Source: Halarcobacter sp.
GTDB taxonomy: Bacteria; Campylobacterota; Campylobacteria; Campylobacterales; Arcobacteraceae
DNA length: 64,000 bases
Direction of reading: 5' to 3'
Assembly: GCA_963676565.1 (NCBI GenBank)
Contig: OY781089.1
Span: forward strand, 1,984,001 to 2,048,000
The notes under the pieces are model-generated. The model did no database searches. It saw only the letters and a list, made by a program, of their open reading frames with translations, and had not been told where the DNA came from. Shown piece by piece: positions 11,265 through 29,420 of this stretch. Each line of letters begins with the position of its first letter. The stretch's first letter is position 1. Position numbers and translations under genes: made by a program.

Positions 11265-12569
11265 TTAGTCTTCCCTTTTTTCTTTCCCTTGATAGTTTCT
11301 ATTAGTGTTTTCATCTCTAATTTGAATAGAGTCTTTTCCAACAAATTGAGATTTTGATATTAGTTCAACATTATTGTTAGCAATTTTAGACATTTGTGAT
11401 GAAATTATTCTAACATTTTCTGCAACTTGTGCATTTTTTTGAGTTAGTGTATCTATTTGGGCAACGGTATTATTTATCATAGAAATACCTAATTCTTGCT
11501 CTTTTGAGGATTGAACAACCTGTTCAATTAGTGAAGTAGTACTATTTATTTTTGCACTTAGGTTTTCATAACCTAATATCATATCATCAGCAATACCTTT
11601 ACCTTCATTAGCCTTAATTGATGCAGATTCAACCAAATTTTTTATCTCTTTTGCTGCATCAGCACTTCTGTTTGCTAGATTTCTAACTTCCCCCGCTACT
11701 ACTGCAAACCCTTTTCCAGCTTCTCCTGCCGTTGCTGCTTCAACTGCTGCATTTAAAGAAAGGATATTTGTTTGAAAAGCAATTTGGTCAATCATATCTA
11801 AAGCTTCATGAACATCCTTTGTTGAATTATTAATTTCATTCATTGCTGTAACTGTTTTTGTTGCTAGAGATAAACCACTTGAAATAGAATTAGTTACTTC
11901 AGCCCCATAGTTTTCCATTTCATTTGCCATATTAGTATTATTTTTGATTGTACTTGTTATCTCTTCAATAGCTGCAGATGCTTCTTCTAATGAAGCAGCT
12001 TGTGTTGTAGTTGATTGAGATAAGTTTGATGAAATATCAAGTAAGTCAGTAGATTCTTTTTGTAAAACTAAACTTGTTCTATATGTACTTTCTAATTGTT
12101 TAGTTATCTCTTTTTTTAGAAAATTAATCCCTTGGGTCATTTTTTTAAAATCCCCACCTCTAAACATTGTTTCATCAATTTCATGTAAAAAGTTTTGTTG
12201 AGAGTATTCATTTAATATCTTTTCAATATTTGCCAATGCTTTTTGAAGCTTTTCAGACATAACATTCATTGTCTTTGCAATATAGTTAAGTTTATTATTT
12301 GAACTTTCTTTTGTAACTCTATCTTCTGTAAAACCATCTGATAGTTTTTCTGCACAAAGCATTATTTCACCATAGATAGTTAAATCTTCAGTATTTTTAC
12401 TTTGAATTAAATTGGAAATATTTAAAATCTTTTCCATAATAAGCTTATCTGTACCACTACAAGTATTATCAGATTGTTCAATTTTATTGATATCCTCTTT
12501 TATGTAATCTTCTATAGTATCTAAAGCTTTTAATATATCATTTGAGTCTTGATTATTTTTAAAAAACAT
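11265..12569 (-). CDS. Cytoplasmic methyl-accepting chemotaxis protein
   Basis: IAFQTNILSLNAAVEAATAGEAGKGFAVVAGEVRNLA signalling hairpin; no TM segment evident. Confidence 0.93.
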   Translation of the reverse strand: MFFKNNQDSNDILKALDTIEDYIKEDINKIEQSDNTCSGTDKLIMEKILNISNLIQSKNTEDLTIYGEIMLCAEKLSDGFTEDRVTKESSNNKLNYIAKTMNVMSEKLQKALANIEKILNEYSQQNFLHEIDETMFRGGDFKKMTQGINFLKKEITKQLESTYRTSLVLQKESTDLLDISSNLSQSTTTQAASLEEASAAIEEITSTIKNNTNMANEMENYGAEVTNSISSGLSLATKTVTAMNEINNSTKDVHEALDMIDQIAFQTNILSLNAAVEAATAGEAGKGFAVVAGEVRNLANRSADAAKEIKNLVESASIKANEGKGIADDMILGYENLSAKINSTTSLIEQVVQSSKEQELGISMINNTVAQIDTLTQKNAQVAENVRIISSQMSKIANNNVELISKSQFVGKDSIQIRDENTNRNYQGKEKRED

Positions 12570-12578
12570 TTTATGGCC

Positions 12579-12962
12579 TTAGTCTAAAGTTTTATACAGT
12601 TCTTCTGCATTTTTAATCTCTTCATCTGTTGGCTTTACCCTAACAGAGATATATCTTAAGTTACCATTTACATCTTTAGAAGGAAATGCCGTTGCATTTA
12701 CCCAATAATACTCACCACTTTTTGTTTTATTCTTAACAATCCCATTCCATATTTTACCAGCTTGTATAGTTTCCCACAAATCCTTAAATGCAGCCTTTGG
12801 CATATCAGGATGTCTTACGTAATTATGTGGTTGACCTATTAATTCTTCTTTTGTATATCCTGCAATTTTACAAAAATCTTCGTTCGCATAAATAATTATT
12901 CCCTTTGAATCAGTCTCAGAAACAATCATTGTTTCCTTACTAAGTTTAACTTCCCCACTCAT
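12579..12962 (-). CDS. Stand-alone Aer/CetB-like PAS domain protein
   Basis: IVSETDSKGIIIYANEDFCKIAGY..ELIGQPHNYVRHPDMPKAAFKDLW; ATG 12962 with AAGGG RBS. Confidence 0.9.
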   Translation of the reverse strand: MSGEVKLSKETMIVSETDSKGIIIYANEDFCKIAGYTKEELIGQPHNYVRHPDMPKAAFKDLWETIQAGKIWNGIVKNKTKSGEYYWVNATAFPSKDVNGNLRYISVRVKPTDEEIKNAEELYKTLD

Positions 12963-13111
12963 TATTTTCCCTTTCAAAAGTTAAAAATAATATAATTATC
13001 CCCAGTATACAATAAAAGTGTATCTAAAATGTCTCTTTTTTCTAAAAAGTATCATTTCGTGTGAGTATTTTGTTGCTTTTTTTACTTATATTTCATTTAT
13101 AATAAATTGGA

Positions 13112-13123: not shown

Positions 13124-15322
13124 ATGAATGAGATATTAAAGAAATTAGACTTAAGTGATTATATAGATTCATTTTCTAAATTATTAGCTAGAGAAAAATC
13201 TATAATCCTAGAAGGGGATATAAACCTTCACCATAGACTTATTAGTGAATTATCAAAATTTGATTTAAAAGAACCAACAAAAGTTGCAAATCTTGACAAT
13301 GCATTGTTACATATACAAAAGCAAGGTATATTAAAAATATATGATATTTATGAGTTCATAAAAATCATTAAATATTTTAACTATTTAAAAAAGTTCAACT
13401 TTGAAGGAAAACTTGCTGAATGGATAGATAGAATTATAATTCCAACAGAGATTAACAAAATATGTGATTACTTTGACGAAAAAGAGAATTTAAGACAAGG
13501 TGTTAATGAAGATTATGATGCAATTAAAGGTGCAATTTATAATAATAAGCAAGAGATAAAACAAAGCCTTTATAAACTAATCAATAACACAAAACTAAGA
13601 AGCTATTTAGTTGATTCACAAGTTCACTATGTAAATGGTGAAGAGTGTTTATTAGTTCGTGGTGGCTTTAACCATGTTATAAAAGCAACTGTTTTAGATA
13701 GATCAAACTCTGGATTTTTTTATGTCTTACCCCATAGTGTTAGTAACTTAAAACAAAAACAAAGTGATTTAATAAATAAGCAAGAAGAGATACTTCTTAA
13801 AGTGTGTAAAGAGATAAGTTCTCTTTTTGAAAAGAATTTACTATTTTTAAAATTTATTAATAAAGAGTTTGATAGATTTGATCATTATCAAGCAAGAATA
13901 TTCTTTTCAAAAATAGGGGATAAGAATTTTATATTACCTAATAAGAAAGGTAAAAACAAACTAGTAGAGTTTAAACATCCAGCATTAAGTGATGCAAAAG
14001 CTATAAGTATAGATTTTTCAAAATCAGTAGTTATGATTACTGGGGTAAATGCTGGTGGTAAAACTATGATGTTAAAATCAATTCTATCAGCTGTATTTTT
14101 ATCAAAATACCTTTTACCATATTATACGCACCATACAAGTGAAGTTGGAACCTTTAAAGAGATTGCTGCTGTATTAGATGATCCTCAAAGTGTTAAAAAT
14201 GATATCTCAACTTTTGCAGGACGTATGGTAGAGTTTTCTAAACTATTTTCTTCAAAAAGTGCAATTGTAGGTGTAGATGAAATAGAACTAGGAACAGATT
14301 CAGATGAAGCAGCTAGCTTGTTTAAAGTTATAATAGAAGAGTTAATTCAAAAAGATATAAAAATCATCATAACAACACACCATAAAAGACTAGCTTCTCT
14401 TATGGCTTCAAATGAAAATGTAGAATTAATAGCTGCACTTTATGATGAAGAGAATCAAAAACCAACTTATGAGTTTTTACAAGGTACCATTGGAAAGTCT
14501 TATGCCTTTGAAACTGCTTCAAGATATGGAATACCACATAATGTAATTAAAAAAGCAAAAGTAGTATATGGTGAAGATAAAGATAGGTTAAATGAACTAA
14601 TAGAAAGAAGTAGTGCCTTAGAAATAGAGTATAAACAAAAGATTAAAAAACTTGAAGAAGAGCAAGAGAGATTTGAAAGATTAAATAAAAATCTAAAAGA
14701 GGCTAAAGAGAGTTTAGATGAACATATTTATGAAGAGAAATCAAAACTTCATAAAGAGTATAAAGATGCAAGAGAAGAAGCAAAGAAAGCTATTAAAGCA
14801 AAAATAGCTGTAGGGCATCAACATCTAAATGTAGCCCATGCAAAAGCTCAATCAATAAAAACTGAAAAAGTTCAAGAAAAAGTTGAACTTAAAGTAGGAG
14901 ATAGAGTTAAATATAGAAGTTCAAAGGGTGAGATTATATCTATAAAAGGGAAAAAGGCTTTTATAGAAAATGATATGGGGATGAAGATGCAAGTCTTACT
15001 TTCAGACTTACAAAGAAGTGGAAACCCACCTGAGATAAAAGCAAAACCAAAAGCTAGTGTAAATGTTCAAAGACCAGACTCTGGACATGTAAAATTAGAC
15101 CTACATGGACAAAGAGCAGATGAGGCAATAGAAAATTTAGATAAGTTTTTATCTGATGCACTAATTGCAGGCTTTGATGAGGTATTAGTTTATCATGGAA
15201 TTGGTACAGGAAAGCTATCATATGCTGTAAAACAGTTTTTAGATAAACATCCACGGGTAAAATCATATGAGGATGCCCATCCATCTTCTGGCGGCTTTGG
15301 AGCTAAAGTTATTAAACTTTAA
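13124..15322 (+). CDS. mutS2: Endonuclease MutS2
   Basis: ITGVNAGGKT, ISTFAGRM, VDEIELGTD, ITTHH; C-terminal Smr domain LDLHG...HGIGTG...GGFGA. Confidence 0.96.
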   Translation: MNEILKKLDLSDYIDSFSKLLAREKSIILEGDINLHHRLISELSKFDLKEPTKVANLDNALLHIQKQGILKIYDIYEFIKIIKYFNYLKKFNFEGKLAEWIDRIIIPTEINKICDYFDEKENLRQGVNEDYDAIKGAIYNNKQEIKQSLYKLINNTKLRSYLVDSQVHYVNGEECLLVRGGFNHVIKATVLDRSNSGFFYVLPHSVSNLKQKQSDLINKQEEILLKVCKEISSLFEKNLLFLKFINKEFDRFDHYQARIFFSKIGDKNFILPNKKGKNKLVEFKHPALSDAKAISIDFSKSVVMITGVNAGGKTMMLKSILSAVFLSKYLLPYYTHHTSEVGTFKEIAAVLDDPQSVKNDISTFAGRMVEFSKLFSSKSAIVGVDEIELGTDSDEAASLFKVIIEELIQKDIKIIITTHHKRLASLMASNENVELIAALYDEENQKPTYEFLQGTIGKSYAFETASRYGIPHNVIKKAKVVYGEDKDRLNELIERSSALEIEYKQKIKKLEEEQERFERLNKNLKEAKESLDEHIYEEKSKLHKEYKDAREEAKKAIKAKIAVGHQHLNVAHAKAQSIKTEKVQEKVELKVGDRVKYRSSKGEIISIKGKKAFIENDMGMKMQVLLSDLQRSGNPPEIKAKPKASVNVQRPDSGHVKLDLHGQRADEAIENLDKFLSDALIAGFDEVLVYHGIGTGKLSYAVKQFLDKHPRVKSYEDAHPSSGGFGAKVIKL

Positions 15323-17483
15323 GATATTTTTTTCTAATCTCATCTTTACATAATGGTTTAGAAAATAAATATCCTTGTACATAATTAGCATTTATATCCT
15401 TTAGCCATTGAAGGCTTTCATTGGTTTCCACCCCTTCAATTACAATGTCACAGTTTAATCCCTGTGTCATGGAAATCATTGAAGTTACCATCTTTCTAGC
15501 TTGTTCATCTTTATCAATTCTAAAAGTAAAAGATTTGTCAACTTTTACTACATCTATTGGGAGGTTATGTAACTGTGATAATGAGGCATACCCTGTCCCA
15601 AAATCATCTAAATAGATTCTTGAACCTTTTTTTGATAATTGATTTAGTTGAAAGTTTAAACTTTCAAGATTTTCCATTGTACTTGTTTCTGTTATCTCAA
15701 AATTAAAATTTTTTAGTTGAAGTGCATGTTTCAATGCGATAGATTCAAAATTCTCTATAAAACTCTCTTTCATTAGTTGTAATACAGAAAGATTTACAGC
15801 AATTGGTAGATTCTTAAGATTATTTTCTTTGTTAAATTTATAAAAGATACAAACTTCATTGAAAATAAGTTCCCCAAGTTCTGTTATCAAACCTTCTGAT
15901 TCTGCAATTGAAATTATATTTTCAGGATTAATAAATTCCTCATCATCATTTTTTACTCTTAAAAGTGCTTCTAATGAGTTGATTTCATTATTTTTCGTAT
16001 TAAAAATTGGTTGGTAGAAAACCTCTAAATATTTTGATGGATTTTTTAATGTTTTTAATAAAATATTTTTAAAACTATCTTTTTCTAAAATATATTTTTC
16101 ATCCTCCTCTTTAAATATAGAAACTTGATTTCTTCCTGCATTTTTTGATCTATACATTGCTGAATCAGCTCTACTCATTAATTCTGCTGTAGTTGTTCCA
16201 TGATCAGGGTAAATAGATACACCAATTGATGTACCTATATTGTGTTCATTATTATTTATAAAAAAAGGTTTTCTAATCTCCTTTATTAAAGACTCTGCAA
16301 TTTTTAATATAATCTTCTCATCTTGAATTCTAGATAATATAATTACAAACTCATCTCCCCCAATCCTTGCTACAATATCATTTGTTCTAACTTTTGATAA
16401 TATTCTTTGTGCAGTTTCTTGAAGAAGTAAATCACCTTCGTGGTGTCCATATATGTCATTTACTTGTTTAAAATGATCTAAATCTAAAAATAAAACAGCA
16501 TTTTTTGTTTTTTTTCTTTTTGAGTTTTCAAGTAAATTTGAGAAATTAATATTTAAAAAATGTCTATTAACAAGTCCAGTTAATACATCATAGTGAGCTA
16601 ATCTATCTAATTCATATTGTCTTTTCTTTCTATCAGTAATATCTGAAAAAATTGCTATATAAAACATTTTTTTAGTTACAGGTTCAATAACTCTGTTTAT
16701 TTGTAACCACTCTGGAAAAATATTATTATTTTTTCTTTTGTTCCAAACCTCACCAGCCCACCAACCATGGTGTGTTATAGATTTCCAGATATCACTGTAG
16801 AAATCTTTCGTATGTCTTCCTGATTTAAGTATACTTGGAGTTTTTCCTAGTACAAAGTCTTGGGAATAACCTGTTATTTCTGTAAATGCACTGTTGACTT
16901 TTAAAATTTTAGCTTCTTCATTTGTAATTATTACACCATCTTTTAATTGATCTAATACTAAATGAGATAGATAATTAGAGCTTTGTGAACCATCAGAATC
17001 ATATGGCAAGATTACACCCATAATTAGTATACCTCTTTCATAGTTTTGAACATCTAGTTTTTTTAATGATAAACTAAAACTTTTTTGATTTTTTAATAAT
17101 AAAAAATGGAAATTCATAGATTTTTGAGAGGTGTCTTTTAGAAATGTTTGAAATTTTGAAGTATATTCCATAAAAACAGATTGATCAAGAAACGTTCTGA
17201 AGTTTTGTTCTAAAATATTAAATTTCCCATTTTCAAAAAAGTTAATAGCAGTTTCATTAAGTTTTTTAATTTTACCAAACTTATCAATTATTACTAGTAT
17301 ATTTGGCGATTGTTCAAAATAGGTACTATAATCTTTTTCTATATTTATCCCACTATATAATAAGTCATTTTCTAATATTTGACAGTCTTGTTTTTGTTTA
17401 AAAAGTTCCTGTTGTAAATCAACAATTATTTGATTTAAACTAGAAATTTGTTCTTGATATGCTCTTATTTCTTCATCAAACAT
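15312..17483 (-). CDS. Coiled coil-PAS-PAS-GGDEF-EAL diguanylate cyclase/phosphodiesterase
   Basis: YDVLTGLVNR, RTND I-site, RIGGDEF, LEALLR, DDFGTGY, KVDKSF, EGVET all intact. Confidence 0.93.
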   Translation of the reverse strand: MFDEEIRAYQEQISSLNQIIVDLQQELFKQKQDCQILENDLLYSGINIEKDYSTYFEQSPNILVIIDKFGKIKKLNETAINFFENGKFNILEQNFRTFLDQSVFMEYTSKFQTFLKDTSQKSMNFHFLLLKNQKSFSLSLKKLDVQNYERGILIMGVILPYDSDGSQSSNYLSHLVLDQLKDGVIITNEEAKILKVNSAFTEITGYSQDFVLGKTPSILKSGRHTKDFYSDIWKSITHHGWWAGEVWNKRKNNNIFPEWLQINRVIEPVTKKMFYIAIFSDITDRKKRQYELDRLAHYDVLTGLVNRHFLNINFSNLLENSKRKKTKNAVLFLDLDHFKQVNDIYGHHEGDLLLQETAQRILSKVRTNDIVARIGGDEFVIILSRIQDEKIILKIAESLIKEIRKPFFINNNEHNIGTSIGVSIYPDHGTTTAELMSRADSAMYRSKNAGRNQVSIFKEEDEKYILEKDSFKNILLKTLKNPSKYLEVFYQPIFNTKNNEINSLEALLRVKNDDEEFINPENIISIAESEGLITELGELIFNEVCIFYKFNKENNLKNLPIAVNLSVLQLMKESFIENFESIALKHALQLKNFNFEITETSTMENLESLNFQLNQLSKKGSRIYLDDFGTGYASLSQLHNLPIDVVKVDKSFTFRIDKDEQARKMVTSMISMTQGLNCDIVIEGVETNESLQWLKDINANYVQGYLFSKPLCKDEIRKKYLKV

Positions 17484-17500
17484 AATTATTTCCTATTAAA

Positions 17501-20320
17501 CTATTTAAAAAATAAAATTCTATCAGGATATAAAGGATCAGGACATTTTTCATGTTTATATTTAACAACATTTCTATTTTTATATTTATCTAAAATTGTA
17601 ATACTACTCCAACCATCACTATCGATTGTATTATTTTTAAAGATGGTATTTTCAATTTCATTTTTAGTAATATTTAAAAAAAGTTTTTCTAAACTTAATT
17701 CTTTTAACTCTCTAGCACTATAATTGAAAAGTTTTTCAGCTAAAAAGTTTGTATGAATTATATTAGAATTTGTATCTACACAAATTATTGGATATTTAGA
17801 ATAAGAACCTAATAGTCCTATAAATTTTTCATGTAATTGATCTGATAAGTAAGTTCTATCTTTTACTTTTTCAAAAAATAGTATTGCACCTACAACCTCT
17901 TTATTATCAAATTTATAAGGAACAATTCTAAGGTCATGATTAATTCTTCTACTCCTTAGATTTATTACAGATTCTTTTTCTAATTCTATTACATTTAAAA
18001 GTTCTGTTCTTAGATTTGGAATATCCATGGTAAAGCCAAATGAAGTTACAACTTGTCCAATGTCATCATGGATTAGTTCAAATAATTTCCCTGCTTTATT
18101 TGTATATCTTTGAAGTCTTAATCTGTTATCAACAAATAAAATATTTTCATCTATTGAACTTAACATTGCAGATAAATCATTGTTTACTTTTCCTAATTCA
18201 AAAGATTTGACTTCTAATTCCTCATTAACCGTTGAAAGTTCTTCATTTGTTGATTGAAGTTCTTCATTAGCAGTTTGAAGCTCTTCATTTGCAGATTGAA
18301 GTTCCTCATTTGCAGATTGAAGTTCTTCATTTGTTGATTGAAGTTCCTCATTACTTGTTTCCAAATCTTGAATAGAACTTTGTAATCTTTCTCTAAAAAT
18401 CTCAATCTCTTGTTTTAATTTATTTTTACTTAGTTCATCAATATCTTTATGATTAACACTAATTGCTGATTCATCAGATAATTCTATTTCTAAAAAAGCA
18501 ATAACAAACAAATCATCTTCTGATGGAGTAATTTCCTCTATAATAATATAAAGTATTCTTTTTTTATCTTTAGAATTGAAGAATAAAGCTTGAGAAGCAG
18601 CATGCTTCTCTTTTTTTGCCTGTTGTAAAAGAGACCTTATATCAATTTTTAAATCATCTTTTGCCATATTAAAAATATTTGTTTCTACTCTTCCTTGCGG
18701 AAATTCAAGGTACTCATTGATATTTCCTTTTATATGTAACATTTCACCCAATGAATTTATTACAATAGAAGCAGGCAAAACTCTATCATTTAAGATTTTA
18801 TTCATTTTATCTTCTAAGCTAACTTCTTCATCTAATTTCATTTTGGTTTTAGTACTAATAGTTTTTTGATTTTTTACTAGTTTTTTTGCACCTTTTACAT
18901 AGTCCAAATTAAAAGATATATCTGTTTTTTTTCTTTTAAATAGTTGGGATTTATTTGTGGAAACATCATATAGTTCAGGAGCTGTGTTTACAGCAGATTC
19001 AGATTTTCCTAAAAACAGATAACTATTTGGTCTTAGGGAATAGTGAAAAGTTTGAAAAATCTTTTTTTGTGTTTCATTGTTAAAGTATATTAGAACATTT
19101 CTACAACTAATTAAGTCTATATTAGAAAAAGGTGGATCCATAATTACGTTTTGTTTTGCAAAAACAACATGATCCCTAAGGGATTTATTTACTATATAAG
19201 AGTTATCATTTTCTTGAAAGTATCTTTTTAACAAAGCTTGATTAATCTCTTTTACTTGAGATGCAGAATATACAGCTTTTCTAGCTAAATTAAGCGCATA
19301 ATCATCAATATCTGTTGCAAATATTTGAAATGAGACAGGTTTATCTTGTTTTCTTTTTGCTTCTTCAAATAATATTGCAATAGAATAAGCTTCAGCTCCA
19401 TTTGCACAACCCGTAACCCAAACTCTAATAGGATCTTTTAAATCTCTTTTTTTAACAATATTATCGACTACTATTTTTAGGTCGTCAAATGCTTCTTTAT
19501 CCCTAAAAAAGTCTGTAACTGAGATAAGTAAGTCTTTAAATAAGGCTTCAACTTCAGAAGAAGAACTATTTAAGAGATTAATATAATCTTCTAAAGCAAC
19601 TATTTTATTAACCACCATTCTTCTTTGAATTCTTCTTTGAATTGTTTTTAATTTATAGCCACTAAAATCATATGAGGTTTGATCAAATATTGATTGAAAT
19701 ATTTTTTCTAAATTAGTTCTTATTTTTGGTTCAGTAACTTTATATTGATACTCTTCCGTTGTATTTATTAGTTTAGGAAGTTCAATTGCAATCTCATTTG
19801 CAGGAAGAATTAAATCAACAAAACCAGTTTCAATTGCAGATTTAGGCATACCAGAATATTTTGCACTTATTTCATCTTGCGCTATTGTTATTCCACCAGC
19901 TGCTTTTATAGCTGTGATTCCAACAGAACCATCACTTCCAGTACCAGATAAAACTATACCTATACTATAATCTTTTAATTCATCCGCCATAGAGCTAAAT
20001 AGTTCATTTATTGAAGGTTTTGGCCCAATTAATGCTGCAGGAGATAATTTTATCTCTTCATCCTTAATTGAAGCATTATGTCCAGGAGCAATAATATAAA
20101 TTGAACCTTTTTCAGGTTTAATATCTTTTTCTACCATATGAATAGGTAGATTTGTAACCCGTGCTAATAAATCTTTTAGAATAGTTGGATGGGTTGGGTC
20201 AAGATGTTGTGCAATTATATAAATTGCATCACTAAACTCTAGGTTTTTTAAAAACTCTTTTATTGCATCTAGTCCCCCAGCACTAGCACCGATTCCTATC
20301 CAGAAATTTTTCTTTTTCAT
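17501..20320 (-). CDS. CheB methylesterase-CheR methyltransferase fusion with coiled coil and PAS domains
   Basis: CheB triad GASAGG / AQHL / LSGTGSDG; CheR VTDFFRD, RVWVTGC, IFATDID, DLISCRNVLIYF; NEEL heptads; C-terminal PAS-like segments. Confidence 0.94.
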   Translation of the reverse strand: MKKKNFWIGIGASAGGLDAIKEFLKNLEFSDAIYIIAQHLDPTHPTILKDLLARVTNLPIHMVEKDIKPEKGSIYIIAPGHNASIKDEEIKLSPAALIGPKPSINELFSSMADELKDYSIGIVLSGTGSDGSVGITAIKAAGGITIAQDEISAKYSGMPKSAIETGFVDLILPANEIAIELPKLINTTEEYQYKVTEPKIRTNLEKIFQSIFDQTSYDFSGYKLKTIQRRIQRRMVVNKIVALEDYINLLNSSSSEVEALFKDLLISVTDFFRDKEAFDDLKIVVDNIVKKRDLKDPIRVWVTGCANGAEAYSIAILFEEAKRKQDKPVSFQIFATDIDDYALNLARKAVYSASQVKEINQALLKRYFQENDNSYIVNKSLRDHVVFAKQNVIMDPPFSNIDLISCRNVLIYFNNETQKKIFQTFHYSLRPNSYLFLGKSESAVNTAPELYDVSTNKSQLFKRKKTDISFNLDYVKGAKKLVKNQKTISTKTKMKLDEEVSLEDKMNKILNDRVLPASIVINSLGEMLHIKGNINEYLEFPQGRVETNIFNMAKDDLKIDIRSLLQQAKKEKHAASQALFFNSKDKKRILYIIIEEITPSEDDLFVIAFLEIELSDESAISVNHKDIDELSKNKLKQEIEIFRERLQSSIQDLETSNEELQSTNEELQSANEELQSANEELQTANEELQSTNEELSTVNEELEVKSFELGKVNNDLSAMLSSIDENILFVDNRLRLQRYTNKAGKLFELIHDDIGQVVTSFGFTMDIPNLRTELLNVIELEKESVINLRSRRINHDLRIVPYKFDNKEVVGAILFFEKVKDRTYLSDQLHEKFIGLLGSYSKYPIICVDTNSNIIHTNFLAEKLFNYSARELKELSLEKLFLNITKNEIENTIFKNNTIDSDGWSSITILDKYKNRNVVKYKHEKCPDPLYPDRILFFK
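18215..18352 (-). repeat. 21-nt coding tandem repeat (7 x NEEL heptad)
   Basis: NEELQST NEELQSA NEELQSA NEELQTA NEELQST NEELSTV NEEL. Confidence 0.92.
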
Positions 20321-21795
20321 ACTTTCCCTTCAATAATTTTAAAAAACTGATTTGTGAACTTTAAGGCAGCTAATTCTTCTTGACTATGAAATTTATTACA
20401 AAACCCATGTTTTTCTTCAACAAATCTTTCAAATGACCTTCTAGGAGATAATCTAAAAACTCCTTTATGTTCTACAATAGATTTATTAGGATTTCCTGCC
20501 CAAGTTAGTTTTTCAGAAATTTCATTTCTAAACCAGTAAGATCTTAGTGCTGAGTTTTGAGATTCTAGTTTGATCCCTAAAACTCCAACTGGTCCTATAA
20601 AGTTCAAATCAAAATCTTTTGATATAGAGTTTGAAACTATTTTATTAGAATTTGAATTTAAAAAGTATTCATCTAAGTTTCTTAATGAATTGTTTTCAGG
20701 TATTGAACCTATTGCCCATATTTGAGAGTTATAAATTATAATTAAACCATCGCTGTTTAATAGTTGTAAAAAATGATTTTTATTCTCTTGTATTTGTATT
20801 TCGAAATTATTTAAATCAGAGATAGTATTTAATAAAGAGTTTATTTTATGCTCAACTAAATCTAAATAGGCAATTTTTTCTTTTGCAAAGAAGTTTTGTA
20901 AACCTAGTGAAAACTGTTGGATAAGATTAAGTATATTATTTCTTTGTAAAGGATCTATTCTTTTATATGTGAAGTTATGGCAAGCTAACAGCCCCCAAAG
21001 CTTGTTTGCAATTATAATTGGGATTGATAAAGATGTTATAACTCCCATATTTTTTAAATATTCAATATGAACGGGGGAAACACTTCTTATATCTGAAAAA
21101 GTTAAATCTGGTTTACTCCCATCTATTGTTAAGATATCTATATCTTTTGAGTTTACATCAGCAATTAATCTGTAGGGATTAATCATATACATATCCCTTG
21201 CAATTTTAGGAATATCTGATGCAGGGAACATCAATCCTAGATAACTATCAGCACCTTCATTTGAAACTTTTTCTGCAATCACTTTTCCTGACCAATCATC
21301 TTGAAATTGATATATTAAAATTCTGTCAAATTTCAGTTGATTATCTATAAGTTCTAAAAATGTATTTTTATAGTCATTGTATTCAATATCATTACAAGGA
21401 GCAATTGTAAGTTCTGTATTGTACTTAATAGTTTTACTTAAAAATTCTTCTTTAATCTTTTGAATATCTATAACTATTGAATTATCAATTTTAGATAACT
21501 TAAGTAAAAGTTTTTCTTTTTTTAAAGTTTTATAAAAAAAATTTACATCTTCATCATCTAATTTATATTCATCTAAAAGTTTGTAAAAATCTTTTAAGAG
21601 ATTTTTTATATTTTTTCCTAGCAAATCTTTACAATCAATTGATAAAAAATCTTTGATATTTTCAGAAACGTGGCTTATTATAAAACTTTCACTATCAAAT
21701 ACTAAAAGTGAGGAAAAAGATTGAATCATTCCAGTTAAGTGAAGTTGCTCTTGTTCACATGTTTTTAATAATTCATCAATATCATAGTTTTGCAT
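20317..21795 (-). CDS. bphP: Bacteriophytochrome photosensory core only (PAS2-GAF-PHY)
   Basis: N-terminal Cys13 (TCEQEQLHLTGMIQ), FPASDIP, RSVSPVHIEYLKNMGV, LWGLLACH, WAGNP, LSPRRSF; stop right after PHY helix. Confidence 0.93.
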   Translation of the reverse strand: MQNYDIDELLKTCEQEQLHLTGMIQSFSSLLVFDSESFIISHVSENIKDFLSIDCKDLLGKNIKNLLKDFYKLLDEYKLDDEDVNFFYKTLKKEKLLLKLSKIDNSIVIDIQKIKEEFLSKTIKYNTELTIAPCNDIEYNDYKNTFLELIDNQLKFDRILIYQFQDDWSGKVIAEKVSNEGADSYLGLMFPASDIPKIARDMYMINPYRLIADVNSKDIDILTIDGSKPDLTFSDIRSVSPVHIEYLKNMGVITSLSIPIIIANKLWGLLACHNFTYKRIDPLQRNNILNLIQQFSLGLQNFFAKEKIAYLDLVEHKINSLLNTISDLNNFEIQIQENKNHFLQLLNSDGLIIIYNSQIWAIGSIPENNSLRNLDEYFLNSNSNKIVSNSISKDFDLNFIGPVGVLGIKLESQNSALRSYWFRNEISEKLTWAGNPNKSIVEHKGVFRLSPRRSFERFVEEKHGFCNKFHSQEELAALKFTNQFFKIIEGKV

Positions 21796-21800
21796 AATAT

Positions 21801-22385
21801 CTAGCTTTCAAAGTGTTTTTTTAGTACTATAAATGTTTCTGTGGCACCTAAAGTTGTTTCATATTTATCAATTTCTACTTCATCTAACCACTTTGAAAAA
21901 CTTAACCATTTATTCATGGTATCCTGTTTATATGATTGATAATATCTATTTGGTACATTGTTCTTAAAGTTTTTTTCTATCATTTTAACTATTTGCATCC
22001 CACCCATAGTTGAACCCTCTAATACATAAAGTGCACCAACTACAGAAGCGAAATTATTTAATGTTTTAAATTCTATATTTTTTTTAATATTTAAATTGTC
22101 AATTTCTACATTTAAATAGTTTAAATCTTCAATTAACCATTTCGTTTTTTCAAGTCTTTTTTCTATATCTTCAAGCTTTTTTTCCACAAATTCATTTTTA
22201 TGGTTTTTAATAATTAATTCGATTATACTAAAAAAAGAATAAAGTTTTTTTAATAAAAAAATATACTCCTCTTCAGACAAATTATTTTTTTTGATTTTTT
22301 CGAATAAATAGAATTCTTCTAGCCATTCATGGAGTGGATAAGTAGCATTTTTTAGATGGTTTTTCAGTGAATCGTTATTTTTCAT
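21801..22385 (-). CDS. bphO: Biliverdin-producing heme oxygenase
   Basis: LKNATYPLH proximal His and GALYVLEGSTMGG distal helix; 5 nt upstream of the phytochrome. Confidence 0.92.
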   Translation of the reverse strand: MKNNDSLKNHLKNATYPLHEWLEEFYLFEKIKKNNLSEEEYIFLLKKLYSFFSIIELIIKNHKNEFVEKKLEDIEKRLEKTKWLIEDLNYLNVEIDNLNIKKNIEFKTLNNFASVVGALYVLEGSTMGGMQIVKMIEKNFKNNVPNRYYQSYKQDTMNKWLSFSKWLDEVEIDKYETTLGATETFIVLKKHFES

Positions 22386-22458: not shown

Positions 22459-24831
22459 TTATATATTTTTTGGATTTTCAAAAGGGGGACTAAATAAGTA
22501 TCCTTGTGAGTAATCAATTCCTAACTCTTGTACCTTTTTTAAGATTGATTCATTTTCAACAAATTCTGCAATTGTTTTCATCCCTAAATCTTTCGCAAAA
22601 TTCACTATATTTTTACAAACTTTTTCACTAAGAATATCTTTATCAATATTTTTTATTAAAGAACCATCTATTTTTATAAAATCTGCTTTTAGTTTTAAAA
22701 GATATTCAAAATTACTATAACCAGTACCAAAATCATCAATAGCAATTCTACACCCAAAAGATTTAACTTTTTTAATAAAATTTAAAACAATTTCAAAGTT
22801 TTCAATTGATTCAGATTCAACTATCTCAAAAACAACTCTTTTACCAACTTGTGAGTCTGATAGTATTTTATAAATAAACTCTTTTATCTCAACATTTAAA
22901 ATATCTTCAATTGTTAAATTTATAGAAAAATTATATTCAAGGTCTTTGAATTTTTCTATGGTTTTTTCTATCATAATTTTTGTAATTTGATTGTAAAATT
23001 TAGTTTTCTTTGAAATTTCTAGAAAAAAGTAGGGTGATATTAATTTATCTTTTTTCCTCATCCTAACTAAAGCTTCATATTTTTCAACCTTTAAAGTTTT
23101 GTTATTTATAATTGCTTGATATACTGGTAGAATATTGTCTTTTTCTATTGCATCTTTAATGGATTTAGTCCATTTTATATTATTTTCATACTCTTTGTCT
23201 AAAGATATATCATCTTTGTAAACTAAGATATCTTTATTGTGTTGCTTTGCAATTTTAATAGTCATTGTTGCTGTGTTTAAAATTCTATTTTTTTCTTCAA
23301 AGGAGATTCCAATGGTAAAATTTAAATTGATAAAGTCTTCACTATCAATATAAAAATTTTCTTTTTTTAGTTGGGTGTTTATAGAGTTAATTTTTTGCAA
23401 AAAAAGATCAGTACTTATATCTTCATAAAAAATTACAAATTCATCACTATGTAAACGATAAATGTTACAACTATTTGAATCTTTTATAATGTTTAGTTTT
23501 TCTGCAAATCTTTTAAGTATCTTGTCACCAATTATATATCCATAAAAATCATTTATTTCAGAAAACCTATCAATATTTATAATTGCTAATGCAGGCTTAG
23601 TGCTTTTGTTTATATCATTTATAAGTTTATATCTATTTCCTAAGTTTGTTAGAATATCAGTATTAACAATAGTATCTAATCTTTCTTGTTGTTCAATAGT
23701 TTTAGTTATATCATGTCTTATTCCAATATATTCATTTATATTGTTTTTATCATCAAGAATAGGGACTATTGTAATATCTACCCAATAATAATTTCCATCT
23801 TTAGTGATATTTTTTAATGTTTTTTTCCAAACTCTTTTTGATCTAATCGTTGTCCACAACTCTTCAAAAATAGATTTTGGATTATCTGGATGTCTAATAA
23901 TATTATGGGGTTTACCAATTAATTCCTCTTTTGTATAGCCACTTATTTTACATAAGTTATCATTTACATAAGTAATATTACCTGCTAAGTCTGACTTTGA
24001 AACGATACTTGATTTATCCATCGCAATTTTGTAACTTTCAAATAAAGATATAGTCCTTTTTAATTCATATTCTATCTCTTTTATTTGACTTATATCTTGA
24101 ACTGTCCCAACAGACCTATATGGATTACCATCTTTGTCAAAGTAATTATCACATTTTTCTTCAACATATTTTATTCTTCCATCTTTCATTTTTAATCTAT
24201 GTTGAATAGCATAAGGTTTTTTTGTTTTAAGTGAATTTAAATATGCATTATTTACCATCTCTTTATCTTCTGGATGAATTGCATTTAAAAAATATTCATA
24301 AGAAGGTTCAAATTTAGATTTATCTATTTCGAAAATCTTATATATTTGATCAGACCAAAAGAGATTATTATTGATAATGTCATACTCCCAGTTACCAATA
24401 TTTGCTAACCTTTGAGCTGTATTCATTTTTTTTGTTATTTCAACTTCTCTTGTGACATCTTTTTGAATACCTAAAAAAAACTGTAGTTTATTGTTTTCGT
24501 CAAAAATTGGAGTTATTGTTAATTCACAGTAAACAATTTCACCATTTTTTTTCTGATTTTTAACAATAGTAGTTATTGATTTTTCTTCTTTTATTGCCTT
24601 TCTTATTTCATCTATTGATTTTTGTTCTTTATTACTTGTTTGTAGGAATCTACAGTTTTTACCCAAAACTTCATCCTCTTTATAATCAAACATTTTATAA
24701 AAACTTTTATTTGCGTAAATAATAGGATTATCGTCTTTTTTAGGATCAGTAATTAGTATTCCGTTTACTGCTTGGTCTATGATTTTTGAGAGAAAAATAT
24801 TTAAGTTTTCATCTAAATAATCTTCTCCCAT
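22459..24831 (-). CDS. LOV-PAS-PAS-degenerate GGDEF-EAL protein (putative blue-light-regulated c-di-GMP phosphodiesterase)
   Basis: ITDP..DNPIIYAN, GKNCRFLQ (Cys60), FFLGIQ LOV motifs; GGDEF site reads HSDEF; YEALVR, DDFGTGYS, KIDGSL, AEFVE. Confidence 0.92.
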   Translation of the reverse strand: MGEDYLDENLNIFLSKIIDQAVNGILITDPKKDDNPIIYANKSFYKMFDYKEDEVLGKNCRFLQTSNKEQKSIDEIRKAIKEEKSITTIVKNQKKNGEIVYCELTITPIFDENNKLQFFLGIQKDVTREVEITKKMNTAQRLANIGNWEYDIINNNLFWSDQIYKIFEIDKSKFEPSYEYFLNAIHPEDKEMVNNAYLNSLKTKKPYAIQHRLKMKDGRIKYVEEKCDNYFDKDGNPYRSVGTVQDISQIKEIEYELKRTISLFESYKIAMDKSSIVSKSDLAGNITYVNDNLCKISGYTKEELIGKPHNIIRHPDNPKSIFEELWTTIRSKRVWKKTLKNITKDGNYYWVDITIVPILDDKNNINEYIGIRHDITKTIEQQERLDTIVNTDILTNLGNRYKLINDINKSTKPALAIINIDRFSEINDFYGYIIGDKILKRFAEKLNIIKDSNSCNIYRLHSDEFVIFYEDISTDLFLQKINSINTQLKKENFYIDSEDFINLNFTIGISFEEKNRILNTATMTIKIAKQHNKDILVYKDDISLDKEYENNIKWTKSIKDAIEKDNILPVYQAIINNKTLKVEKYEALVRMRKKDKLISPYFFLEISKKTKFYNQITKIMIEKTIEKFKDLEYNFSINLTIEDILNVEIKEFIYKILSDSQVGKRVVFEIVESESIENFEIVLNFIKKVKSFGCRIAIDDFGTGYSNFEYLLKLKADFIKIDGSLIKNIDKDILSEKVCKNIVNFAKDLGMKTIAEFVENESILKKVQELGIDYSQGYLFSPPFENPKNI

Positions 24832-25092: not shown

Positions 25093-25479
25093 CTAGCCTT
25101 TTAGTGATTTAATCATCTCTTCCATGATTACATTTGCTTGTTCATTTGGCGCTTCTAAAAAGTTTACTACAAACATATCTTCTAGTTCACAAACACCTAT
25201 TGCTCTTGGTCTTACAGCTAAAACCTCAGGAGTTGGTATCTCTTTACCAAAACAAAATATAATATTTTTAGCATCTTTAATATCTTCTCTTATAACTCCA
25301 TCTACTCTCTTTGTTTGTGAAAACTGATCAAATGTTGAAATATAAGCTATCACAGGATGTGCATCAATTTTGTCTTTTAGCGCTGCTAATATCTCATTCA
25401 CATTTTTGAATTTTAATTCATCTTTTGAAAATTCAATTTCAAAAATGTGGTATTTATCTTTAAAAGTTTTTTGTTTCAT
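25093..25479 (-). CDS. Conserved hypothetical protein (DUF6858/DUF302-like)
   Basis: AGGA RBS; IIFCFG..IP..LAVRPRAIGV motif. Confidence 0.75.
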   Translation of the reverse strand: MKQKTFKDKYHIFEIEFSKDELKFKNVNEILAALKDKIDAHPVIAYISTFDQFSQTKRVDGVIREDIKDAKNIIFCFGKEIPTPEVLAVRPRAIGVCELEDMFVVNFLEAPNEQANVIMEEMIKSLKG

Positions 25480-26135: not shown

Positions 26136-29100
26136 TTATTTTGTAGAGACATCGAAGTTAAATACTGCCCATTTGTTTTTCTCATCTTCTTGTTTTGTAA
26201 TGTCATCTATAATAATAGATTCTTTTGGAACTTTTTTCATGTTAAATAAGTAATTTTTAATATTTTCTATTCTTTTTTTAGTAATTGAAATCAATTCTTT
26301 TTCTGAAACATTTTGTTTAGAAGCAAGGAAATCTCTTAAGTATTCTGTATACGCATCAATTTGAAAATACTCTTTTCCATTTTTATCTTTTTTATAATAT
26401 GTTTCTTTTATTTTATCTAAGTCTTTTACATCTTTTAACTCATTATAAAACTCTTCTAAAGCTTCTTTATAATCATCCCCTTCAGGTATCTTTTCCATTC
26501 TTTTTAATACAAATTGTTCAAATTTTATATCTTGAAGAGCTTTTTTATCTTTTTGAGGATTATAAATTGGTTTTATCTTTATTGCAAGTCTAGGTTTTTT
26601 TGATAAAAGTTTTGCAATACTATCTAAGGTCTCTTTTTCAGAAGGTACAATATCACTTTTACCAAACTCAAAATCCATACTTTTTATCTTATCTTCATCA
26701 ATTCCTAACATTGCCCCAAGTAAGGCAAATGGTGAAGTGATTGCTTTAACTATTAAGTTTGTGAATACTTTCCAAACAATAGGTGCAATTGAAAATTGAG
26801 GATCATCAACATTACCTGAAATAGGTAAATCAATATCTATAATTCCATCTGAATCTTCTAGTAATGCAATAGCTAGTTCTAATGGAAGATTAACTGCGTC
26901 TGGACTTTCTACTTTTTCACCCAATTTAATATCACTAATGATAACTGAGTTTTGGGCACTTAAATCAGATTTTTTGATATTATATTTTAAATCTAGATTT
27001 AATTTACCACTATCGATTTTTCTTCCTATAAATTTACCTGAATATGGTGTGAAATTTTTAATTGCTATATTTTTAAATAATAAATTTGTATCTGTTAATA
27101 ATTTAATATCATTAATATCTACAGTTCCAACAATTTTTGTATAACCATATTTATCAACTTTACCTTCCAATTGGAGTTTTGTTGGTTTTGAATTACTTGA
27201 GTTTAATCTTGAAAAACTACCTTGTAGTTCATTTATATTTGTTTTAAATGGTATTGGAAGATTTTTATCTTCAAAAGTCATCTTCATATTTTTTATTTTT
27301 ACTGGACCTACATCAAATTTAAAATCACTTTTTTCTTTTGAAGCTTTTTTAACTGTTTCTTCTTCAACTTTTTTGTCTTGTGATTTTTCTTTTTTCCCTA
27401 GTGTAATTGATACATAGGGTTTATTTATATCTGAAGATTGAACTTTTAAATTATTGTTAGCAAAAGAGATTTTATTTACATTTATGTTAATATTTTTTGC
27501 AAGAATATCAGTTTTTGCTTTTTTATCTTTTATATTTGTATTTGGATTATATAAATTTAAACTAGAAATTGAAATTGCACCTTTATTACTAATTAGATCA
27601 TTCAATTTCAAACTGATGTTTCTTGCAACAATATTTTGATCATTTTTATTATCAACAAAATAAATTGAAGGCTTAGCTAATCTAATTGTTTTAATATTTA
27701 GTTTTTCATCTTTTAGTGTTGTATTTAAAGCACTTAGATTTAAGCTTTTTGTTGTGATATTCATTTTACTTTTTTTATCATTGAATTTTATAGTTGGAAT
27801 ACTTAATTTTGTTTCATCAAGAGCTATATCATTTCCATTTAGGCTAAAGTTTTTAGCGGTGATAGTATTTGAGTTAGCTACAACATTCATAGAACTTTTC
27901 TTATCTAAAAAATAAATAGATGGGTTTGTTAGTTTTATATTTGAGATAGTTGTGCTTTCATTTTCTTTTTTGATATTAGCGATATTTAAATCAGTTTTTT
28001 TACTAAATATTGTGGTTTTATTTTTTAAGTCTTCAAAATCTAAAGAACTATTTTTTATATTTAATTCATCAAGTAAGATATTTGAATTTGAAAAAGAGAA
28101 ATTATTTGCATCTATTTCTAACTCTTTATTTAAAATTGATAAATTGTTGTTTTTATTGTCAATTGTAATATTAGGTTTTGACAAAAGTAAATTGGCTAGT
28201 GTAATATCACTACCATCAACTTTTAAATCTTTTAAAGTAATATTTAAATCATCTGTTTTTGTAAAAAGTTTGCTTGATAAATCATCAAATTTTATATTTG
28301 ATTCTTTTAAATCAAAGTTTTTTAAAGAGATAGTCCATTTGTTACTTTCTTCTTGTTTTTGTGAAGCATTTGTTTCAATTTCAGTATTTATAGGCTCTTC
28401 AACTTTTTCTTCATTATTTGCAATTAAATTTGCAAAATTAATTTCACCTTTTTCATCTACTATTGCATTAAGATTTAGTTGATTTAAAACTATCGCTTCT
28501 ATATCAATATTGTTTTTTGGATATTGAAGATTTATATTATCTATTGCAAAATTTTCTAAAGAAGTTAGTGTTTTTTCATCTTTTGATATATTAAGTTTAT
28601 TTAATGCTAAATAACCATCATTTAAAATGACACTCAACTTATTTTCTGTATCAACTTTATAACCAATTTTTAAATCAATAAAAGTCTCTTCACTTAAATC
28701 AAAGTTTACTAAATCTTTTTTGTAGTTTAAAAACTGTTTTGGTCTAATATTTTTTAGCTCTACATTTCCATACATTTTAAATGGAGCAAGTCTTAAACCT
28801 CCGTTTATTTCTAACTCACTATTTTGATTGATTAACATTCTTAATGAGTGTGAAGCTAAAATATTTCTAAATGTACCCATATCATAAAATGTATAATCAA
28901 ATTTACTAATATTTAATTTATATGGTTCATCATCTTTATTTAATTTTGTGAAGTTAATAGAAGCATTATCTAAAATAGTTCTATATATTTGGAATTTTAT
29001 ATCTGAACTAGTTGTTTTTGTTTCCTCTTTAGTTTTTTCCTCTTTCTTTTCTTTTAAAAGTTTTTGTAGGTTAAAGGTTCCATCTTCATATTCAATAATA

Positions 29101-29420
29101 TTTAGATAAGGGTTTACAAGTTTTAAATCTTTAAAAGCTATATGAAGTTCATCAATTGACCTTAAAACAGCAAAATCAATATAAATATTATCTATCTTTG
29201 CTGTTGTTTCTTTATCATTGTAAATCTCTAAGTTTTGTAAAGATAGTTTTAATAAAAAAGGATTGAATTCTATTTTCTCTAATCTAGCTTTTTGAGTAAT
29301 ATTCTCATTAATAATTTTTTCTATTTGTGGTTTAGCAATTTTGGGAATAGCTATGAAACCAATAATAGTATAAATTAAAAGAATCGACGATATTGTTATA
29401 AGTAGTTTACCATTTTTCAT
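26136..29420 (-). CDS. DUF748 / AsmA-like envelope protein
   Basis: N-terminal TM, FNPFLL, PYSGKFIG..IDSGKLNLDL, LPLELAIALLED..G.IDIDLPISG, C-terminal OmpA-like region. Confidence 0.88.
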   Translation of the reverse strand: MKNGKLLITISSILLIYTIIGFIAIPKIAKPQIEKIINENITQKARLEKIEFNPFLLKLSLQNLEIYNDKETTAKIDNIYIDFAVLRSIDELHIAFKDLKLVNPYLNIIEYEDGTFNLQKLLKEKKEEKTKEETKTTSSDIKFQIYRTILDNASINFTKLNKDDEPYKLNISKFDYTFYDMGTFRNILASHSLRMLINQNSELEINGGLRLAPFKMYGNVELKNIRPKQFLNYKKDLVNFDLSEETFIDLKIGYKVDTENKLSVILNDGYLALNKLNISKDEKTLTSLENFAIDNINLQYPKNNIDIEAIVLNQLNLNAIVDEKGEINFANLIANNEEKVEEPINTEIETNASQKQEESNKWTISLKNFDLKESNIKFDDLSSKLFTKTDDLNITLKDLKVDGSDITLANLLLSKPNITIDNKNNNLSILNKELEIDANNFSFSNSNILLDELNIKNSSLDFEDLKNKTTIFSKKTDLNIANIKKENESTTISNIKLTNPSIYFLDKKSSMNVVANSNTITAKNFSLNGNDIALDETKLSIPTIKFNDKKSKMNITTKSLNLSALNTTLKDEKLNIKTIRLAKPSIYFVDNKNDQNIVARNISLKLNDLISNKGAISISSLNLYNPNTNIKDKKAKTDILAKNININVNKISFANNNLKVQSSDINKPYVSITLGKKEKSQDKKVEEETVKKASKEKSDFKFDVGPVKIKNMKMTFEDKNLPIPFKTNINELQGSFSRLNSSNSKPTKLQLEGKVDKYGYTKIVGTVDINDIKLLTDTNLLFKNIAIKNFTPYSGKFIGRKIDSGKLNLDLKYNIKKSDLSAQNSVIISDIKLGEKVESPDAVNLPLELAIALLEDSDGIIDIDLPISGNVDDPQFSIAPIVWKVFTNLIVKAITSPFALLGAMLGIDEDKIKSMDFEFGKSDIVPSEKETLDSIAKLLSKKPRLAIKIKPIYNPQKDKKALQDIKFEQFVLKRMEKIPEGDDYKEALEEFYNELKDVKDLDKIKETYYKKDKNGKEYFQIDAYTEYLRDFLASKQNVSEKELISITKKRIENIKNYLFNMKKVPKESIIIDDITKQEDEKNKWAVFNFDVSTK
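27429..28310 (-). repeat. Seven tandem 42-aa (126-nt) degenerate repeats within the DUF748 protein
   Basis: Units start LKES, LSKP, IKNS, LTNP, LSIP, LAKP, LYNP at exact 42-aa spacing. Confidence 0.85.

Follow-up and report, generated by a model that had tools for sequence, protein, structure and literature searches.

A red-light receptor that carries no signalling domain of its own raises the question of which protein receives its signal. Such a receptor is encoded by Halarcobacter sp. on contig OY781089.1, within the 64,000 nucleotides (nt) analysed here, which are referred to as the window and whose positions serve as coordinates throughout. The gene, bphP (20317..21795, minus strand), specifies an output-less bacteriophytochrome (BphP; P0001) of 492 amino acids (aa) and overlaps the start of mac1 (17501..20320, minus strand), the gene of a 939-aa CheB-CheR fusion protein (P0243). 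A sequence-only reading of this DNA had suggested that the phytochrome signals in trans by light-dependent binding to the CheB-CheR protein or to a GGDEF-EAL protein. Here, we present a computational analysis of the phytochrome, its relatives and their gene neighbourhoods. The 492-aa protein is a complete, natural bacteriophytochrome consisting of the photosensory core alone, without covalent output, and the recurrence of its gene beside mac1 points to a MAC1-type protein as its partner.

A bacteriophytochrome reduced to its photosensory core

The Pfam scan of the 492-aa protein detected PAS_2 (residues 13-111, 6.7e-12, 46.5 bits), GAF (146-294, 7.8e-9, 36.6 bits) and PHY (319-489, 3.4e-23, 82.4 bits) and no domain beyond these, with neither HisKA nor HATPase among the matches. 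The chromophore motifs that the sequence-only reading had described as intact (Cys13, PASDIP, SPVH..Y, LACH, WAG and PRxSF) were all found again and are invariant in an alignment of 27 sequences (A1). The invariant positions comprise C13, encoded by the TGT codon at 21759-21757, P191-A-S-D-I-P196, R209, R237, S240, P241, H243, Y246 and H273 as well as, in the PHY tongue, W432 and G434 of the WAG motif (432-434) and P451, R452, S454 and F455 of the PRRSF motif (451-455). The AlphaFold2 model built on A1 is confident (mean pLDDT 86.9, pTM 0.82), its sole weak stretch being the tongue at residues 441-451. By Foldseek, it matches the photosensory module of the Deinococcus BphP (5mg1) with TM-scores of 0.83/0.83 over 486 columns, and the closest solved relatives by sequence are the RpBphP photosensory modules (4r6l, 1.4e-52), SaBphP2, Agp2 and IsPadC. 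The final helix spans residues 471-491 in the model, and the protein ends 21 residues into the helix that follows PHY; the sequence-only reading had put the end just after the PHY helix. Together with the adjoining gene of a heme oxygenase, bphO (21801..22385, minus strand, 194 aa, PF01126 at 8.3e-14), the presumed supplier of biliverdin, these motifs and the model suggest that the protein binds biliverdin at Cys13 and photoconverts between Pr and Pfr. It is the one phytochrome match in the whole 3.34-Mb genome; a heterodimer with a kinase-bearing BphP is therefore excluded.

A core without output could have arisen by recent loss, and the sequence-only reading had named close homologues fused to an output domain, with this copy a recent truncation, as the finding that would speak against it. 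Relatives were sampled at lengths of 270-861 aa, and the following figures refer to the 120 best listed. Of these, 113 (the query included) measure 487-509 aa and consist of PAS_2, GAF and PHY only, three are fragments of 374-434 aa, and four are kinase-bearing proteins of 735-747 aa (31-33% identity, ranks 108-116). The output-less relatives extend from 87% identity (source label Arcobacter arenosus) down to about 28% and include proteins of Rheinheimera, Skermanella, Magnetospira, Alteromonas and Methylococcales. In A1, the C-terminal ends of all 25 output-less sequences agree within a few residues, whereas the two kinase forms run on into a linker helix. The same alignment holds two clade signatures, C-E-x-E-Q-L-H-L-S/T-G as against E-P-I-H-I-x-G and IPxIAR as against IPKQAR in the two kinase forms. 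The homologues thus end where this protein ends, and fusion of close relatives to an output domain was not borne out.

In a tree calculated from 85 photosensory cores (quick search under LG+G4 with SH-aLRT; the partial loci L008, L009, L010, L025 and L073 left out), 19 output-less rows fall into one group with an SH-aLRT of 100 and a branch length of 0.54. One further output-less row, L055, in which mac1 is present, stands outside this group on a long branch. On the basis of conserved length, conserved end point and the strongly supported 19-row clade, a recent truncation was rejected. As judged from these sequence comparisons, output-less BphPs are a large, widespread natural clade and not peculiar to one genome. 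Within the organism's own family the distribution is patchy: any phytochrome match was found in eight of 184 genomes, its own included, and the short form in one further genome, G092, which belongs to the same genus (52% identity).

Linkage to a MAC1-type protein

Along the minus strand of the window runs a tightly packed series of open reading frames (ORFs) at 22459..24831, 21801..22385, 20317..21795, 17501..20320 and 15312..17483, which encode 790, 194, 492, 939 and 723 aa; in this order, the first two gaps measure 73 nt and 5 nt, an overlap of 4 nt follows, and the last gap is 17 nt. The stop codon of bphO thus lies 5 nt before the bphP start. The bphP stop codon TGA (20319-20317) overlaps the mac1 start codon ATG (20320-20318) in the sequence ATGA (20317..20320, minus strand), and GAAGGG stands 5 nt 5′ of this ATG. 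Direct reading of the sequence confirmed the positions that had been assigned to the overlap and to the Cys13 codon, as well as the presence of GAAGGG, the proposed ribosome-binding site. Behind mac1, 17 nt past its stop codon, begins the gene of a PAS-GGDEF-EAL protein (P0241; 15312..17483, minus strand, domains by Pfam), presumably the enzymatic output, here split off from MAC1. Heme oxygenase, BphP, MAC1 and PAS-GGDEF-EAL are kept in G092 (locus L092) at 56, 51, 75 and 67% identity, and beyond these four genes no match to the window was found within 19 kb, the flanks being different. Because only these four genes are kept there, the conserved unit is, by this comparison, a four-gene cassette of bphO, bphP, mac1 and PAS-GGDEF-EAL (15312..22385), from which the gene upstream of bphO is excluded.

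In the 939-aa neighbour, Pfam found CheB_methylest (residues 8-180), CheR_N, CheR (268-448) and PAS_10 (716-817); neither HisKA nor HATPase was matched, so that the protein of the window has no recognised kinase. The AlphaFold2 model, based on an alignment of 34 sequences (A2), reached a mean pLDDT of 74.6 and a pTM of 0.37. It consists of CheB (1-190), CheR (203-465), a disordered linker, a PAS-like alpha/beta domain (502-613), a single helix of 96 residues (627-722), a PAS domain (726-818), a further helix and a second PAS domain (846-938). Foldseek matched the CheR part to 5ftw (TMt 0.88) and the CheB catalytic domain to 3sft (TMt 0.86), and the catalytic positions are conserved in all 34 sequences (S13, H39 and D130 of the CheB triad; C305, G308 and E310 of the CheR motif for S-adenosylmethionine). 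The long helix carries the Glu-rich heptad SxNEELQ seven times (residues ~655-705; 18206..18358, minus strand), presumably forming a methyl-accepting coiled coil, and E659, N664, E665, E666, E673, E680 and E687 are invariant in the 34 sequences. A CheB-CheR fusion with its catalytic residues, followed by a Glu-rich heptad coiled coil, is characteristic of MAC1, and to judge from sequence and model the neighbour is a MAC1-type protein. MAC proteins were reportedly defined by genomics by Wuichet and Zhulin in 2010. The term MAC1 is used in the available parts of MiST3 (PMC6943060) and of a 2022 preprint (bioRxiv 10.1101/2022.05.07.491037), and the latter describes, in the same portion, MAC proteins as not experimentally characterised in any respect. 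The idea that the enzymes of MAC1 are the cell's chemotaxis CheB and CheR was rejected, since a separate CheR and CheB pair lies about 200 kb away in the genome. With this pair and 24 MCP-signal matches over the cut-off in the same genome, the CheB and CheR domains of MAC1 represent an additional set.

The sequence-only reading had seen the link between phytochrome and CheB-CheR protein in this one locus. For a wider view, one genome per species was searched with A1, which yielded 591 confirmed relatives (a search with the single protein as query had returned 44 matches, none of them a relative), and the best 80 of the 591 were taken as loci. ORFs called in these loci were compared with the window proteins by blastp, and a phytochrome was counted as output-less if it extended no more than 545 aa from where the core starts. 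A CheB-CheR fusion is encoded in 14 of 20 output-less loci, the window counted, versus three of 65 loci with longer, fused BphPs. In 11 of the 13 output-less loci outside the window (L002, L012, L014-L021, L031, L042 and L055), bphP and mac1 lie on the same strand and overlap or are separated by no more than 60 nt, whichever gene comes first; for L018, which is counted among the 11, the distance was measured from bphP to the split GGDEF-EAL piece of MAC1. The order heme oxygenase, BphP, MAC1 is found in the window, G092 and L055, and the order MAC1, BphP and optionally heme oxygenase in L014-L021 (L019 included), L031 and L042; a bphO homologue is present in L014, L019, L042 and L055. The linked loci belong to Campylobacterota, Alteromonas, Chromatiales, Dechloromonas, Hydrogenophilus, Rhodoferax and a Bacteroidota metagenome-assembled genome, the last being L055 with heme oxygenase, BphP and a MAC1-histidine kinase. 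The link outlasts changes of gene order across phyla, which speaks for a functional tie and against simple co-inheritance. The proposed link was thereby extended to 13 further loci in several phyla, whereas translational coupling, which had been proposed from the ATGA of the window, holds here but is not universal because most relatives have the reversed order.

The output of MAC1 varies between loci. GGDEF-EAL is fused to it in chains of about 1500 aa in L015 and L031, is encoded by a separate next gene in the window, L012, L042 and also G092, and is split internally in L018, while L019 and L055 carry HisKA-HATPase. P0241 aligns to residues ~950-1510 of the fused MAC1-GGDEF-EAL proteins of 1491-1529 aa, and its motifs RIGGDEF, I-site RTND, LEALLR and DDFGTG are intact. 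Its residues 1-40 start with a heptad-like helix (MFDEEIRAYQEQISSLNQIIVDLQQELFKQKQ...), which could dock onto the kinase-less MAC1.

Two further observations concern phytochromes outside the output-less group. In L033, L069 and L085 (Christiangramia, Mesonia and Gillisia), a kinase-bearing BphP of 737 aa directly follows a MAC1-PAS-HisKA-HATPase protein of 1216-1222 aa, with a gap of 0-3 nt or a 4-nt overlap and with heme oxygenase about 550 nt downstream; these flavobacterial kinase forms constitute a separate clade in the tree (support 99). As the 19-row group, the outlying L055 and the flavobacterial clade all carry it, the association of phytochrome and MAC1 appears, in the tree, on two or three branches. 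The other case is L009/L112 (contig C81 of G113, same family as the window organism), where 234 nt separate a partial BphP at the contig end from a divergently oriented MAC1 gene (44% identity to the MAC1 of the window).

Upstream of the cassette, on the same strand and 73 nt before bphO, lies the gene of a 790-aa LOV-PAS-PAS-(degenerate GGDEF)-EAL protein (P0242; 22459..24831, minus strand). Its LOV domain matches the YtvA family of NCBIfam (residues 13-140, 201 bits) and contains the flavin-binding cysteine motif GKNCRFLQ; HSDEF replaces GGDEF and EAL is intact, so from its motifs the protein is probably a blue-light phosphodiesterase. The sequence-only reading had considered a GGDEF-EAL protein as partner, and two genes of this kind adjoin: the downstream one (15312..17483) belongs to the cassette, whereas the upstream LOV gene is absent beside the cassette of G092, the one sister genome that has it. 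Since a gene for a probable LOV phosphodiesterase adjoins the cassette, cyclic di-GMP (c-di-GMP) may be a point at which red and blue light converge in this organism.

As to the surroundings, the 3′ end of the 15312..17483 ORF overlaps the convergent MutS2 gene (13124..15322, plus strand). The promoter scan gave 65 promoter-like sites versus 74 expected and the terminator scan none between the cassette genes; AT-rich DNA makes both uninformative. At 11265..12977 (minus strand), a stand-alone PAS protein of 132 aa (PAS_3, 1.4e-19) is encoded directly upstream of a 434-aa MCP-signal protein, a pair reminiscent of an Aer-like cytoplasmic chemoreceptor in split form. On the upstream side of the light-sensing cluster lie the genes of a DUF6858 protein (25093..25479, minus strand) and of a 1094-aa DUF748/YhdP-like protein (26136..29420, minus strand, 6.7e-183), neither with an apparent link to the phytochrome.

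Proposed signal path and competing explanations

In the signal path that we propose, BphO would produce biliverdin, which BphP would take up at Cys13 to toggle between Pr and Pfr. The light state would then be handed non-covalently to the co-encoded MAC1, and MAC1 would govern the PAS-GGDEF-EAL enzyme encoded downstream, which is fused to MAC1 in most relatives and replaced by a histidine kinase in others. The CheR and CheB domains of MAC1 would act on the SxNEELQ coiled coil, methylating and demethylating it, so that the c-di-GMP output adapts to background light. On balance, we think it probable that the phytochrome core is a detachable light-input subunit which attaches to MAC1 non-covalently and tunes the output of GGDEF-EAL, with CheR and CheB adapting the coiled coil. 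The identity of the partner is drawn from comparative genomics; the contact, its site, the methylation and the sign of the light effect are inferred. As a guess, the contact site would be the PAS-like domain before the long helix or the PAS domains after it. A complex prediction with MAC1 500-939 and BphP 1-492, both entered as alignments, gave a score of 0.00 with controls not run and is evidence neither for nor against contact.

Several observations weigh against this proposal. Among the linked loci, bphP and mac1 are 483 nt apart in L042 and convergent in L012. Six of the 20 output-less loci have no MAC1 inside 7 kb, so the link can evidently be loosened; in the 19-row group of the tree, 13 rows have MAC1 in view, and the six others are a Chromatiaceae-type sub-clade of four, with housekeeping neighbours, nested beside MAC1-linked rows, one contig of 5.7 kb and one Magnetospirillum. 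All five searched genomes with a MAC1-less output-less locus hold at least two full-length MAC1 genes elsewhere, which is weak support because MAC1 is common without phytochromes: in the 184 genomes of the family, about 40 full-length MAC1 copies stand against eight genomes with any BphP, and most lack a phytochrome. No fusion of BphP with MAC1 was seen, as none of 120 listed relatives of 862-2460 aa carries PF01339 or PF01739, though this is weak evidence. Furthermore, between the window and G092 the sensor has evolved much faster (51%) than MAC1 (75%) or GGDEF-EAL (67%), unlike what is predicted for a tight, co-evolving interface. Finally, adjacent genes can be co-regulated without any contact of their products.

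Other explanations of the same locus were considered. BphP might signal to an unlinked partner or to the LOV-PAS-EAL protein encoded upstream, its place next to mac1 being due to co-regulation or co-transfer. The MAC1-less loci and the blue-light phosphodiesterase gene on the same strand are what one would expect in that case, but this gene does not adjoin the G092 cassette, no recurrent separate LOV-GGDEF-EAL neighbour was seen in the other loci, and co-transfer alone is insufficient for a link to MAC1 that recurs across phyla in both orders; we regard this explanation as unlikely. Even less credit, and indeed very little, is due to the notion of a kinase-type BphP that survives as a truncated remnant, or of a photochemically inert phytochrome. 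It would fit the missing output domain and the score of 173 bits against the NCBIfam BphP equivalog NF041576 (cut-off 1040; profile positions 10-486 of 622), of which the protein is not a member. Length and end point are, however, conserved from 87% down to about 28% identity, the pocket and tongue residues are invariant, the model is confident, the heme oxygenase is retained and the clade is monophyletic.

A different use of the same partner would be that BphP regulates, or is a substrate of, the CheB and CheR domains of MAC1, so that light sets the methylation level. CheB is normally gated by a receiver domain, which the photosensory core would replace. A receiver domain is indeed lacking in MAC1, where CheB begins at residue 8. 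In the window, G092 and L055, the CheB coding sequence starts right where bphP stops, and conservation within the partner is highest for CheB and CheR (40-49% versus 28-37% in the middle region). This juxtaposition of the BphP C-terminus and the CheB N-terminus is not general, though, because in most relatives mac1 precedes bphP, and in A1 the C-terminal helix of BphP has no SxNEELQ-type repeat. We consider control of CheB and CheR improbable. Returning to the detachable light-input subunit, a more far-reaching version of it is tentative: output-less BphPs might generally be light antennae for MAC1 and constitute, with it, a soluble, self-adapting phototransducer in which CheR and CheB reset a methylated coiled coil, so that the c-di-GMP or kinase output reports changes in red and far-red illumination and not their absolute level.

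Meaning and comparison with known systems

In full-text searches that did not extend to most subscription journals or to bioRxiv supplements, no paper was found on the pairing of an output-less BphP with a CheB-CheR protein or on the clade. The sensor fold of the locus is known, but its conserved arrangement of two proteins, the second from a transducer class that is uncharacterised, is undescribed. A MAC partner with a known and easily controlled stimulus, red and far-red light, would make the input, adaptation chemistry and output of MAC proteins testable. If output-less BphPs are indeed light antennae for MAC1, the MAC class would for the first time have an input and a function assigned, and the two proteins would be a bacterial cytoplasmic counterpart of sensory rhodopsin and Htr. 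Phytochrome biology would gain a natural clade of large size in which signalling involves no covalent effector. Should binding depend on light, BphP and MAC1 would make up a naturally evolved near-infrared, biliverdin-using protein-protein switch of practical interest for optogenetics.

With the canonical histidine kinases DrBphP, Agp1, PaBphP and SaBphP2, this BphP shares the PAS_2-GAF-PHY core, the N-terminal Cys, the pocket motifs PASDIP, SPVH..Y and H, the WAG and PRxSF motifs of the tongue and the bphO neighbour. In contrast to them, it has no HisKA/HATPase, carries the changes of the clade signatures and forms a separate, strongly supported branch. Red light is tied to c-di-GMP enzymes also in IsPadC (PDB 5llw), one of the best sequence and fold matches, and in BphG-type proteins. 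There, GGDEF is fused to the PHY helix via a coiled coil, whereas here GGDEF-EAL is part of another polypeptide behind the CheB-CheR-coiled-coil-PAS protein.

MAC proteins, as covered by the accessible portions of MiST3 (PMC6943060) and the preprint (bioRxiv 10.1101/2022.05.07.491037), agree with the window protein in the CheB-CheR fusion and the Glu-rich coiled coil. Those described there contain a kinase, whereas in the window the MAC1 chain lacks one and GGDEF-EAL is encoded separately behind it; these portions make no mention of a phytochrome partner for MAC proteins.

Signalling through a separate protein has a precedent in RpBphP1 of Rhodopseudomonas palustris, according to the part of PMC6899989 available to us a kinase-inactive bacteriophytochrome that binds, depending on light, the separate multi-PAS protein PpsR2. 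The likeness lies in a BphP that signals through a separate multi-PAS partner, binding being presumed in the case of BphP and MAC1. Unlike this BphP, RpBphP1 retains an output module at its C-terminus (PAS9/HOS), through which contact is made, and MAC1 is not a DNA-binding repressor. A local Foldseek comparison of the PAS-helix-PAS part of MAC1 with PpsR (4hh2) was poor (TM-scores 0.10/0.24) and indicates a generic likeness of PAS arrays.

The sensory rhodopsins of haloarchaea and their Htr transducers, as presented in the available part of PMC5812497, likewise combine an output-less photoreceptor with a methyl-accepting coiled-coil transducer and adaptation by CheR and CheB. The parallel is an analogy only, since chromophore and fold are different and that system is embedded in the membrane and feeds CheA and the flagellum. 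In the system proposed here, all components would be soluble, the adaptation enzymes would be fused to the transducer, and the output would be c-di-GMP turnover or a kinase.

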